Shown here: positions 16,360-42,875 of the stretch, piece after piece
Layout of the letters: every line of letters begins with the position of its first letter
Position numbering within the stretch: the stretch's first letter is position 1
From: Eledone cirrhosa
Taxonomy: Eukaryota
NCBI GenBank assembly: GCA_964016885.1
Contig: OZ024742.1
Coordinates: 302,064,001 to 302,128,000 of the forward strand
DNA length: 64,000 bases
Direction of reading: 5' to 3'
Made by a program: the position numbers and the translations under genes
Notes under the pieces: model-generated
The model's database searches: none
The model's input: the letters and a program-made list of their open reading frames with translations, nothing else
What the model was told of the DNA's origin: nothing

Positions 16360-16419
16360 AACAGTGTGCTGTACTGATGAAGAGTGATGCCTAGAAACAT
16401 TAGTGTCTGCAGTTCTGTT
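16360..16419 (+). ncRNA. Type I hammerhead ribozyme motif (weak stem II)
   Basis: CTGTA-CTGATGA-AGAGTGATGCCTA-GAAAC-ATTAGT-GTC-TGCAG. Stem I CTGTA/TGCAG is extended by AACAG/CTGTT; GUC cleavage triplet. Confidence 0.55.
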
Positions 16420-17429
16420 TACATGCCAACACAAGAGCAAGAATGAAGGGTTCATTCTACTGATATGGCGTTAAAAATGAGGCTTATTTGCATAATGCAA
16501 ACGAATCGAATGTTATTAATATTCGAAAAACTCAGATTACACACACATATATATATATATAAGTTTTAATATAGATGAGATTCTACAGGACTAGAACTGT
16601 TTCATTCTTTAGAAATCTTAGGATTACTTACTGTGGTTACCTCCGATTCAACCTGGAATAACTTACCTATATATATATATATATATATATATATATATAT
16701 ATATATATATATATATATATATATATATATATATATATATGTGTGTGTGTGCGTGTATGTATATTTCTGTGTCTGTGTGTGTGACTTGCGTTGTATATTC
16801 AATCATATACAAAATATTCATGTAAATAAACATTTTTGTGGCCTTGCTATAATTTTTAAAAGCAGTGATTAATTCATCACTAATCTTTGGCAACCGAGGG
16901 AGAGCACCCTGATGGCAGTGTTTCTAGTTCTTTAGCCATTGTCAGAGGGCTGACTCTTGGATGCTAAGATAAAAATAATCTAAAAGCTTATAGTTTTTGT
17001 ACTTATGAACATCAGCTGATGAAGCTCATTTGCATACAGAGCAAAAGACAGTGGCTTACCTCTTATATATATATATATATATATACACACACACACACAC
17101 ACACACACACACACACATATATATATATATATATATATATATATATATATATATATATATATATATATATATATATATATATATATATATATATATATAT
17201 ATATATATATGTATATATACATATTTATATATATACATATATCATCATCATCATCATCATCATCATCATCATCATTTTACGTCCACTTTTCCATGGCTGC
17301 ATATATATATATTTATATATATATATACATACATATATATATATGTATATATATACATATATATATATATATATTTATACATATGTATATATATATATAT
17401 GTATATATATATGTATATATATATATACA

Positions 17430-18068
17430 TACGAACATGCCAGACAACAACACGACGGTAACATAGACAACATAGAAATTAGAATAATATCTAAACATAG
17501 AAATGACCCAGCAGATAGGCAAATCAGAGAGGCCAGTTTTTTAAAATTTATTTTGAAACTTTTTCATTATTTGCTAAACCTTGTTTATATTTGTTCTGGC
17601 TCGTTAATTTATTAACCTGCCATTGAACCACACTGGCATTTGGTTGGACAATACATGCGTACCTTAGCGCCTTGTGCGTGAAGGAACACATATCCTATTA
17701 CTACTATCTCCTCTAAGTCGAGAACAAATTGGGTCGCTCCGACTGCTGCTAGTGATAGCTGCGGCTGGTTTGACCTACCTCCCTCTGCCTCTATCTTTAC
17801 TTCGGCCCTTGATAAACCTGTTTCTACATCATCCACTCTCATCCCAGGAACAGTTTTGATAGCGCTAGTTCGTAATTTAAATTCAGGAATTTTATATTCT
17901 TCGAATGAAAAGAACCTTCTGACGAGAATCTTTCTCTGCAACGAAGGCCGTATGGTCTCCGTTTATTTTTGGGATTCGAAACCGATCGGTAAAGGTAACT
18001 ATAGTAGGTAAAGTCAATTTTTTAAAATTTATTTTGAAACTTTTTCATTATTTGCTAAACCTTGTTTA
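17430..18068 (+). mobile_element. Penelope-like element 3' fragment (GIY-YIG C-terminal remnant plus terminally redundant HHR-bearing repeat) inserted in (TA)n
   Basis: Peptide [35 protein letters not shown] resembles the PLE GIY-YIG C-terminus (H..H / R..EA). A ~55-bp direct repeat at 17536 and 18017 (481 bp apart) brackets one HHR. Confidence 0.6.
17914..17996 (+). ncRNA. Type I hammerhead ribozyme
   Basis: ACCTT-CTGACGA-GAATC...GATTC-GAAA-CCGATCG-GTA-AAGGT: intact core, stem I ACCTT/AAGGT, stem II GAATC/GATTC, palindromic stem III ACCGATCGGT, GUA triplet. Confidence 0.85.
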
Positions 18069-18085
18069 TATATATATATATATAT

Positions 18086-18438
18086 ATAATATAAGATCAA
18101 AAGATGGTTAAAGGAGTTCAATATATTTTATTATGCGCATTTCAAAAACAAACATCATCAAATAATAATATTTGTGTTTTCATCAGATAAAACAGGAGAA
18201 CATGATATGAAGGCTAAAAAAAACACTTGTTGATAGTGCAGTTTTAAATCAACATATATCATTGATATATGTTGATTTAAAACTGCACTATCAACAAGTG
18301 TTTTTTTTAGCCTTCATATCATGTTCTCCTGTTTTATCTGATGAAAACACAAATATTATTATTTGATGATGTTTGTTTTTGAAATGCGCATAATAAAATA
18401 TATTGAACTCCTTTAACCATCTTTTGATCTTATATTAT
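18086..18438. repeat. Perfect palindrome, ~176-bp arms, 1-nt spacer, one HHR per arm
   Basis: ATAATATAAGATCAAAAG...ATATCA T TGATAT...CTTTTGATCTTATATTAT, centre at 18262; (TA)n immediately to the left. Confidence 0.93.
18332..18398 (+). ncRNA. Type I hammerhead ribozyme (mirror copy on - strand at 18126-18192)
   Basis: TTTTAT-CTGATGA-AAACACAAATATTATT..GATGATGTTTGTTTTT-GAAA-TGCGCA-TA-ATAAAA; palindromic stem III ATGCGCAT; AUA triplet. Confidence 0.8.
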
Positions 18439-19332
18439 GCATACTCCAGTCCCACAAACTGTAGAGTGCTTCTTATCCGATATCTGCATTGCTTTATTGT
18501 ACTACAATAAAACTCACCTCCTACATATATATATATATATATATATATATATATGGGATAACAAGTTATCCTTATAGGTAATCCAGTTAGAGTACTCCGC
18601 GTCATGGATAGTTTTAACGTACGGCTTTGTTTGACTCAACAAGATGTTTCCATAGTTATGCAGCCAGTTCGCGGTAATTCCGATGCAGGTTATACTTGGA
18701 GTAATAATAGTTAAAGAAAGAAGAGTAACATGGTTGGCTGTACAATAAGGGCTTTATTTAAAGTACTGACAATTGTTTCATTGATCAGGTATGTTTAGAG
18801 TTCGCTAATCGCTTGAGGTTGCGTCAATCAATCTCCAATACATTGTTTACAACTGGTCAACACATAAGAGCACGTAAATATGTATATATATATATATATA
18901 TGTATATATATATATATACATATATATATATATATATATATATATATATATATATATATATATATATATATATATATATATATATATATATGTATGTATA
19001 TATATACATATATATATATATATATATATATATATACATATATATATATATATCCATATATACATATATATATATATTGGTAAACGGAATAGAAAATGCT
19101 GACAAATTGTTCACAGTTGAAAAATGGTTTAATTAGGAATAAAAGAGTATTAGTGATTGTATGGGTTAGTATTCAGTTGTGGTTTTAAGTTTTTAAGTTT
19201 TTACCGGTTGCGCATTTCTAAATGCTTTTCAAAAATAATTTTGAGATAGATTGTCCGTGCTGTTTGGTGTGTTACACCTCTATTCTTTTAACTATATATA
19301 TATATATATATATATATACATATATGTATATA

Positions 19333-41808: not shown

Positions 41809-41820
41809 TATATATATATA

Positions 41821-42068
41821 TTATTATGTAATAAACAACATAAGGCAATTATTCCATTTACCAGTGGTTTCTTAAAAGCAAAAGGTTTTGCTTTCAATTC
41901 TCAGAATGAAAAAATCCTGGTTTGTTTATTGAATTTGGATTTTTAAAATCCAAATTCAATAAACAAACCAGGATTTTTTTCATTCTGAGAATTGAAAGCA
42001 AAACCTTTTGCTTTTAAGAAACCACTGGTAAATGGAATAATTGCCTTATGTTGTTTATTACATAATAA
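41821..42068. repeat. Near-perfect palindrome, ~123-bp arms, with a variant HHR core
   Basis: TTATTATGTA...GGATTTT T AAAATCC...TACATAATAA; right arm CATT-CTGAGA-ATTGAAAGCAAAA-CC-TTTTGCTTTTAA-GAAACCACTGGTA-AATG. Confidence 0.88.
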
Positions 42069-42289
42069 TAATTAAGCTCTGTTACCTACATAGAGCACTC
42101 TTTTTTCCTGGACTTTCCCGACGGAATTACTTCACACACACACACATATATATATATATATATATATATATATATATATATATATATATATATATATATA
42201 TATGCAAAGTTTTATTTAAATTGTTGGGTTACAACGAGTAAATATTTATAACTGATATAAAAGCACTCAACAAGTATTTGGAGTATATT

Positions 42290-42638
42290 TACGATATTAA
42301 ATAAATGGAAACTATATTTATAAAACCATATTTATTTCATTATATATATTTCAGGGATATCACATTAAAAATATGGTATGCCTTCTTCAGACAAAATACA
42401 ATATAAACAGTCTTATAAATAGATAGATTTGACATACCTTTCAACTTCATCTTCCATTTAAAAAGTTGAAATGGAAGATGAAGTTGAAAGGTATGTCAAA
42501 TCTATCTATTTATAAGACTGTTTATATTGTATTTTGTCTGAAGAAGGCATACCATATTTTTAATGTGATATCCCTGAAATATATATAATGAAATAAATAT
42601 GGTTTTATAAATATAGTTTCCATTTATTTAATATCGTA
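42290..42638. repeat. Palindrome, ~170-bp arms, 9-nt spacer, HHR at 42531-42594 (+) and mirror on -
   Basis: TACGATATTAA...CCATTT AAAAAGTTG AAATGG...TTAATATCGTA; ATTTTGT-CTGAAGA-AGGCATACCATAT...GTGATATCCCT-GAAA-TATATA-TA-ATGAAAT. Confidence 0.9.
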
Positions 42639-42810
42639 TATATATATATATATATATATATATATATATATATATAAAAGCAAAAGGGATATTTAATTTG
42701 TTGGTAATTCAACAAATATAAATGTTTATAACTGATTCAAAACTATCCAGGAAAAACTTGAACCGTTAAGATCTTCTTCCTGGTTATGTCAATATTTATA
42801 AAACAAACTT

Positions 42811-42875
42811 TGTATTTTATCTGATGAGGGCGTACCAAAGTTTTGGTACCATTGAAATATATATAATAGAATACA
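42811..42875 (+). ncRNA. Type I hammerhead ribozyme
   Basis: TGTATTTTAT-CTGATGA-GGGCGTACCAAAGTTTTGGTACCATT-GAAA-TATATA-TA-ATAGAATACA. Confidence 0.78.

Follow-up and report, generated by a model that had tools for sequence, protein, structure and literature searches.

Penelope-like elements (PLEs) are known to carry minimal hammerhead ribozymes (HHRs) with a palindromic helix III in their repeats, in many families per genome and mostly as solo copies, and opposite-strand ribozyme pairs lying 100-700 bp apart have been described (PMC4209133). PLEs of the Hydra clade insert at TA targets and leave inverted copies with a tail on one side only; one octopus Hydra family with a ribozyme is listed (Hydra-1_Obim), with no pseudo-long terminal repeat (pseudo-LTR) in the available part of that account (PMC8557442). 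Retrozymes are a second kind of ribozyme-bearing repeat, and PLEs have been named as candidates for their mobilisation (PMC7229834, bioRxiv 10.64898/2026.07.22.740005). At the level of mechanism, a PLE protein cuts and extends both strands in vitro, with two internal start sites defining the tail; it is a predicted dimer, its main template is uncleaved RNA, and the ribozyme is protein-assisted (PMC11167929). The available part of a further source does not mention ribozymes (PMC13282606). Here we describe a TA-rich field in the genome of Eledone cirrhosa (3.0 Gb, 1796 contigs) in which type I HHRs are gathered; the field lies in a stretch of 64,000 nucleotides, G000:C3:302064001-302128000, which we call the window. 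An Argonauta protein is among the nearest relatives found, which would suit a cephalopod host.

We consider it highly probable that the field is a nest of 5′-truncated ends of Hydra-clade and Neptune-type PLEs together with HHR-bearing tandem repeats that lack an open reading frame (ORF), i.e., non-LTR retrozymes, all of them in (TA)n, the ORF-less repeats having likely been pasted in by a Penelope-like enzyme. The last point is suggested by an insertion footprint that is common to the PLEs and the ORF-less repeats.

Ribozymes were sought with a strict type I descriptor (CUGANGA, helix II, GAAA, a palindromic or hairpin helix III, UH and a helix I of at least 4 bp). The field contains 31 such motifs, 12 outside a 311-bp array and 19 inside it (3 on the minus and 16 on the plus strand), and the 26.9 kb of window outside the field contains none. 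Helix III is palindromic in 12 of the 12 motifs outside the array; the original prediction, which was made from the letters of the window, had claimed this for most of its motifs. That prediction had also named 11 positions and 3 mirror copies, given as the start of helix I or as the far end on the minus strand. All are real motifs: 12 of the 14 sites pass the strict scan, and the two that fail it are weak or decayed copies within their families, namely a core at 16374, whose helix II has decayed (11 of 19 other copies of its family, H, pass), and a core at 32004, whose 2-bp helix I is family-wide (20 of 20 copies of family G). Its further statement that the host segments abut (TA)n applies to 13 of 15 element ends checked, which have a TA run of at least five within 300 nt 3′ of the cleavage site, but not to the ends at 33984(-) and 42821(+).

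Could the motifs be chance matches in AT-rich DNA? Two of the helix III palindromes, of the form ATATATAT, are low-complexity, and an Rfam scan of the window yielded only two sub-threshold HH9 matches, besides many false miRNA matches on palindromes and TA. However, 300 dinucleotide shuffles of the 22.8 kb scored, with TA runs kept, gave a mean of 0.013 motifs and a maximum of 1, against 12 observed; shuffles of a genome sample gave 0.4 against 36; and the families are conserved over hundreds to thousands of candidate loci. A comparison with shuffled sequence had been named beforehand as one refuting test, and the observed density lies far above it. The two scans refute the chance explanation, to which we assign next to no probability.

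Repeat families in the window were grouped by masked self-BLAST (Table 1). Families A, A2 and A3 are about 80% alike, and B and B2 84-86%. The supposition that the ribozyme families are unrelated does not survive this grouping, as the A, A2, A3, B and B2 sites (9 of 12) are related and Hydra-type ORFs are reached from each of A, A2, A3 and B. Every family is dispersed across the genome; the numbers of first-look candidates, which are not copy numbers, are 3392 for A, 1355 for A2, 1321 for A3, 479 for B, 1124 for C, 153 for D, 1844 for E, 2220 for F, 1396 for G and 2466 for H.

Table 1. Features of the window, in window coordinates, with the ribozyme-bearing field first and other elements last
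Feature	Position	Strand	Details
(TA)n field, insertion target	14888..43444	.	35 runs after merging, over the 22.8 kb scored without the array
Strict HHR cores outside the array	17919, 27116, 27948, 18338, 34240, 42538, 42821	+
Strict HHR cores outside the array	18186, 33984, 34687, 41244, 42390	-
Further decayed or truncated motifs	16565-16617(-), 21692, 25827-25914, 41904(-)/41985(+), 27014(-)
Family H	15962..16546	+	ORF-less tandem unit of ~435-440 bp plus short inverted arm; helix III ACATTAGTGT, decayed helix II in this copy; HHR core 16374 with predicted cut at 16407
Endonuclease-region fragment of another PLE	17433..17549	+	fused to the E unit; 90% amino acid identity to an ORF in locus L112
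Family E	17534..18066	+	1.1 copies of ORF-less 481-bp unit; HHR 17919-17991 with ACCGATCGGT as helix III; end in TA at site 1 (+80)
Family B fold-back	18089..18524	.	3′ end of intact Hydra-clade element in two head-to-head copies, identity to locus L106 99.4% and 99.6%; HHRs 18186(-) and 18338(+); arm ends +46 and +137; TA both sides
Family A3 3′ end	27066..27215	+	HHR 27116-27165, helix III ATATATAT
Family B2, older relative of B	27232..28127	.	short inverted end; direct 3′ untranslated region (UTR) with HHR 27948-28002; Hydra endonuclease fragment 27276-27593 on minus strand, 80% amino acid identity
Family G	30542..32122	+	last codons of Neptune-type endonuclease, 1.5-kb C-rich 3′ UTR, then HHR, then TA; minimal HHR 32004-32031 with helix III ACGT and 2-bp helix I
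Family C fold-back	33738..34566	.	ORF-less 469-bp unit; HHRs 33984(-) and 34240(+); helix III ACTAGT
Family A 3′ end joined to inverted tail	34590..34825	-	HHR 34687-34643
Family D retrozyme array	35022..40894	.	3.2 inverted and 15.8 direct copies of 311-bp unit; one HHR per unit, helix III ACGCGT; arm ends at phases 218 and 255; TA both sides
Family F	40918..41290	-	3′ part of ORF-less ~627-bp unit; HHR 41244-41177
Fold-back of a further family	41537..41806	.	seemingly keeps only 3′ half of HHR, as read from the sequence
Fold-back of ACCACTGGT family	41821..42145	.	same core lesion on both arms (41904-, 41985+)
Family A2 fold-back, Hydra-type	42204..42636	.	HHRs 42390(-) and 42538(+); arm ends +137 and +57
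Family A	42677..42918	+	inverted tail (+84..+169) joined to direct 3′ end (-123..+57); HHR 42821-42865
44-bp satellite	1-8435		also at L302; 190 copies, telomere-like core CCCTAACCCTAA; similar sequence continues upstream
Terminal-inverted-repeat element	19334-20630		presumably Tc1/mariner-like; broken DDE transposase frames (weak DDE_3 match); inserted in TA run
Long interspersed element (LINE) 3′ ends, related, with (ATC)n tail	12560-13723, 20929-21095, 23490-24592, 26470-26868, 32297-32861		LINE taken to be RTE-like
LINE reverse transcriptase fragment	53272-55218		RVT_1
Two short interspersed element (SINE)-like copies, tRNA-derived	8476-8822, 11375-11722

Among the other elements in the table, several of the (ATC)n-tailed LINE ends adjoin TA runs, i.e., the field also collects elements without ribozymes. 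The endonuclease-region fragment at 17433-17549 comes from a third PLE type (L112:7308-8939).

Family B provides an intact element. Two loci (L106 and L107) have an identical ORF of 821 amino acids between two HHRs 3.9 kb apart and end in TA, and the family B arms in the window are 99.4-99.6% identical to the pseudo-LTR of this element. When 150 matches to its reverse transcriptase (RT) core were scored, of 29,881 candidates, all 150 were 98-100% identical and free of internal stops, and about 50 of them lay in the full 821-amino-acid frame (as counted from the tabulated matches). A profile search of PDB sequences with the 821-amino-acid protein returned nothing below E 0.04; its predicted fold (pLDDT, the predicted local distance difference test, 83.4) has telomerase RTs as its top six PDB matches, and this search with the modelled structure settled the identity of the predicted RT. 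The assignment of the endonuclease to GIY-YIG draws on motifs, on one relative in Pfam and on atlas neighbours of the protein, which carry GIY-YIG and RVT_1. Family B is an endonuclease-bearing (EN+) PLE, with one ORF that combines a telomerase-like RT and a GIY-YIG-type endonuclease between pseudo-LTRs, and 23 of 25 of its ends lie in (TA)n.

By their motifs, families B and A2 can be assigned to the Hydra clade. Both have DKT in place of DKG (HSDKT in L106 for B, KSDKT in L364 for A2), a CxCX5C linker, and CxxC and CxH around a conserved E and N, without CCHH. The place of the RWK motif reads RWT in B; the W is not among the invariant columns listed. The A2 protein is 49% identical to that of B, A and A3 lead to Hydra-type fragments, and the genome contains at least three Hydra proteins. 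Family G has, in broken ORF pieces (L296-L300), DKG, a CX2-5CxxC linker and a CCHH endonuclease. Its copy in the window consists of the C-rich UTR of a Neptune/Nematis-type element, preceded by the last codons; none of six loci read contained an intact family G ORF. A sense PLE ORF was found upstream of the HHR, with no TA run between, in 8 of 70 contexts for B, 4 of 40 for A2, 6 of 34 for A, 1 of 37 for A3 and 6 of 21 for G. TA-targeting PLEs of the Naiad type were considered for the window families and rejected, since the endonuclease of these families is C-terminal and Naiads are described, in the accessible part of the account, as without canonical HHRs (PMC8557442). A Naiad acting as mobiliser in trans is possible.

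Families C (469 bp), D (311 bp), E (481 bp), F (~627 bp) and H (~435-440 bp) are tandem units in circular permutation. None of the contexts read for C (0/51), D (0/62), F (0/19) and H (0/13) has a sense PLE ORF upstream of the HHR; one of 25 does for E, and this one is the chimera of the window itself. Because many of these contexts are short or lie inside arrays, the counts show that the units are self-contained, not that they have no parent. With tandem units, one type I HHR each and no ORF, the five families have the features of non-LTR retrozymes and probably belong to them. Elsewhere in the genome, an array of the C unit spans more than 20 kb (G000:C1:127.666-127.689 Mb), and a 310-bp relative of the D array forms arrays of its own (L312, at G000:C3:302168001-302178000, and L374), including one fold-back array 40 kb from the window. 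Much of what the original prediction had supposed, a community of (TA)n-targeting PLEs with non-autonomous ribozyme passengers, agrees with the dispersal of the families, their ORF links and their TA association genome-wide. Its proposal that each family be linked to a full-length element with RT and GIY-YIG led to an intact element for B, to Hydra-type ORFs for A, A2 and A3 and to a Neptune-type ORF for G, but to none for C, D, E, F and H.

The evidence that ties the two kinds of element together is how their copies end. Copies end in TA at fixed positions 3′ of the predicted cut, of which most families have two, a site 1 and a site 2: +46/+137 for B, ~+57/+150-169 for A, +57/+137 for A2, +59/+142 for A3 and +80/+190 for E; in D the sites are at unit phases 217-229 and 248-262. 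In insertions with two arms and with TA at both ends, counted for A, A2, A3, B, D and E (C, F, G and H stand outside the count), the arms end at opposite sites in 62 of 65 cases, whether the element is autonomous or ORF-less. By family, the counts are 11/11 for A, 12/12 for A2, 10/11 for A3 (in which one locus gives two entries), 11/12 for B, 8/9 for E and 10/10 for D (in which eight arrays were chosen since both orientations were seen among their matches). The cleanest test is A2, whose query favours neither site. Around the ORF-less insertions, the same two-site, TA-flanked footprint encloses multi-unit arms of free length, from 1 to 16 units.

The two arms of an insertion also resemble each other more than they resemble relatives elsewhere. 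Of 69 head-to-head ribozyme pairs, 66 match closely, 1 consists of two members of one family that differ by a deletion, and 2 are made of different families. Per ~100 nt, there are 1.05 changes between the arms of an insertion and 2.64 between an arm and its relatives at other loci, and the value was lower between arms in 56 of 62 comparisons. The B arms in the window match each other exactly, none of 35 relatives compared being as close, and one fold-back has a core lesion common to both arms (41904/41985). Two junctions are of a different kind. At 34860-35003, a family F end lies head-to-head with an end of the 41537-41806 family, joined via a few shared bases and flanked by TA at either end; the two ends were either primed by different RNAs or brought together by a later deletion. 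A near-identical junction of inverted tail and direct end of family A occurs at seven loci (window 34590-34825 and 42683-42918; L003, L017, L018, L020 and L021), and is either a recurrent join or a short derivative that was mobilised again.

Because the arms end at opposite fixed sites and share private variants, they point to priming at two sites on one RNA. The sequence of events might be as follows. The GIY-YIG domain would cut a (TA)n run, whose two strands have an identical sequence, on each strand. Reverse transcription on one RNA would then be primed by the two 3′ ends so freed, at sites 1 and 2, which lie 35-110 nt apart and both 3′ of the ribozyme. The two cDNAs would then join head to head, producing a fold-back with a tail on one arm only, or a single arm where the second cDNA was very short. 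With a circular or multimeric retrozyme RNA as template, the RT could run through many units; that the arrays were likely written at insertion is suggested because the same footprint surrounds multi-unit arms of free length. TA would be left on both sides of every insertion, such that TA-rich fields keep attracting insertions. Since copied DNA always runs across the cleavage site, the ribozymes are not likely to define the insertion end; their role would more likely be the cutting of multimers into monomers or circles, and dimers of two ribozymes are predicted to form through the palindromic helix III.

A different origin of the fold-backs would be snap-back or self-priming of a single cDNA or an antisense template, or later conversion of one arm by the other. 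Short palindromes stand at some fold-back centres, e.g., 18250-18275; self-priming has been proposed for rotifer PLEs (PMC3846280); and the two arms have private variants in common, down to the lesion at 41904/41985. In some family A insertions, however, the tail arm covers +84..+169 and the other arm -123..+57, with no overlap, and neither can therefore be a copy of the other. Snap-back also gives no reason why arms end at opposite sites in 62 of 65 cases, and we think this origin unlikely. Priming of the two ends by two different RNAs paired through helix III is disfavoured by the private variants that arms share, although different families do meet in 2 of the 69 pairs and at the junction at 34860-35003.

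The arrays might alternatively have grown after insertion, by unequal crossover from a monomer or dimer, or have been copied from a long linear multimer, with no circle needed. Birth as satellites is the model favoured in the discussion of bioRxiv 10.64898/2026.07.22.740005, long source arrays exist (the 469-bp arrays on C1), and a circle and a linear multimer look alike at the DNA level. Against later crossover, the arms of D insertions on many chromosomes are usually both multi-unit, have fixed end phases, and are identical or one change apart, and at one locus (L123) the same variant is common to 12 of 12 units on both arms. The uniformity of the D arms makes later crossover less likely but is compatible with a linear multimer; taken together, these two routes seem to us rather doubtful.

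A bolder model, to which we give slightly less than even odds, is one in which a dimeric Penelope-like enzyme opens (TA)n, with both ends primed at two fixed sites of one RNA, and in which, on circular retrozyme RNAs, both active sites roll round and write kilobase fold-back arrays in one step, in a genome that would hold on the order of 180,000 such ribozymes and an intact Hydra element that is currently bursting. Several points weigh against our main explanation of the field as a nest of PLE ends and of retrozymes pasted in by a Penelope-like enzyme. Minimal PLE ribozymes are weak (PMC4209133), and only one of nine frog retrozymes cleaved in vitro (bioRxiv 10.64898/2026.07.22.740005). Predicted dimers have a full intermolecular helix III for B, B2, D and G, and a partial one or none for the others. 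In vitro, both strands used the same start sites (PMC11167929), 3 of the 65 fold-backs here have the same site on both arms, and family F shows one clear end site, +271. The loci were the best-scoring matches, in which young copies are over-represented, and the B matches were selected to include site 2. The identity of the arms can also stem from gene conversion or snap-back copying. Pfam gave no family for the 821-amino-acid protein or for five of six other PLE fragments, and no autonomous parent of any ORF-less unit was found in the loci read, which are a small part of the genome.

How special is the window? A genome sample of sixty 10-kb stretches, evenly spaced at fixed positions over 19 large contigs (600 kb; L236-L295), contains 36 strict motifs, or 33 once mirror pairs are merged. 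If the sample is typical, its density of 6 per 100 kb extrapolates to ~180,000 motifs genome-wide. Helix III is palindromic in 30 of the 36, and at least 10 further helix III types occur in the sample. The scan and TA-enrichment check that had been proposed bear out the association: (TA)6 or longer lies within 200 nt downstream of the predicted cut in 33 of 36 motifs, compared with 10.5% of random positions, and motif count follows TA-run count with a rho of 0.57. Perfect TA runs of at least 8 nt make up 4.8% of the sampled DNA.

The field had been called a hot-spot that may regenerate itself, and one explanation of it is indeed a special, self-regenerating site in which the insertion reaction itself adds TA repeats. 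In the window, 12 motifs fall on 35 TA runs, and in the sample 36 on 385; 10 of 12 neighbouring 10-kb blocks have no motif; six random sample blocks reach 14 motifs with a P of 0.0008; young insertions have TA flanks roughly twice as long as run splitting would give; and the RT is telomerase-like in fold. However, the window and the field limits were picked after the fact, 6 of the 60 sample blocks have 3-4 motifs like the window's own blocks, and one block 40 kb away holds 11. The flank lengths are explicable by a steeper preference for long runs, by slippage or by assembly error. Family B flanks have a mean of 25 nt. Splitting of runs picked with a probability proportional to length would give 14 nt (P 0.0002); if a run is chosen by length squared, 23 nt are expected (P 0.26), and because of this fit the flank data agree equally with TA addition and with a stronger preference for long runs. 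We regard the self-regenerating site as quite improbable. The window is locally enriched, yet it is a dense example of a genome-wide pattern: the enrichment part of the hot-spot claim stands, while the idea of a field special in kind is not supported.

The original interpretation is mostly right and largely published, and its parts are known; what goes beyond the print that we found is the PLE footprint on retrozymes and the opposite-site rule. In the literature covered, outside which fall older and most subscription papers, we found no report of a PLE footprint on retrozyme arrays and no opposite-site count. The term "twin priming" does not occur in the PLE papers surveyed. In twin priming of L1 elements, the inverted arm comes from a second priming event and the arms do not overlap, whereas the arms of the window families usually do.

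The closest relatives of the Hydra-type families are the EN+ PLEs of the Hydra clade (PMC8557442), with which they share a C-terminal endonuclease, DKT, the CxCX5C linker, CxxC and CxH without CCHH, (TA)n targets, a 3′ HHR with palindromic helix III, and the inverted 5′-truncated copy with its tail. As differences, the unit here is 3.9 kb with a 1.2-kb 3′ UTR, published families being generally less than 3 kb; RWT stands in place of RWK; the tail is ~80-110 nt rather than 30-40; and one genome has at least three Hydra proteins and a very young burst. Family G shares with Neptune/Nematis-type PLEs (PMC4209133, PMC8557442) GxRF, DKG, YIDD, a CX4CxxC linker, the CCHH-type endonuclease, a minimal HHR with ACGT as helix III and TA targets, and differs from them in its 2-bp helix I and 1.5-kb C-rich 3′ UTR. 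The ORF-less families are like animal non-LTR retrozymes (PMC7229834; bioRxiv 10.64898/2026.07.22.740005) in being AT-rich and tandemly repeated, with a single type I HHR in every unit of a few hundred bp, in ranging from monomer to multimer, and in sharing a genome with PLEs. In contrast to those, the arrays here carry the whole PLE footprint (head-to-head arms, two fixed end sites and TA flanks), and no parent pseudo-LTR was found in the loci read.

Two questions called open in print become directly testable: how PLEs make tandem and inverted structures with a one-sided tail (PMC8557442), and by which enzyme the retrozymes of animals are moved (PMC7229834). In this genome there are many near-identical copies of an intact Hydra element, and ORF-less passengers with the same footprint; if the dimeric-enzyme model is true, that element could be used to reconstitute the reaction. 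If the extrapolation holds, ~180,000 hammerheads in 3.0 Gb would exceed the 126,247 reported for axolotl (PMC7229834), a rough comparison since the scans differ, and the axolotl genome, at 28.2 Gb, is about nine times larger (bioRxiv 10.64898/2026.07.22.740005). Finally, Poseidon of Anolis in vitro (PMC11167929) shows the same two internal, tail-defining start sites, the same cutting and extension of both strands, and the same read-through of an HHR that has not been cleaved. Its two strands each used both sites, however, whereas the arms in this genome are opposite in 62 of 65 cases. This opposite-site rule can be counted, is common to autonomous and ORF-less elements, and is a regularity that any model must explain.

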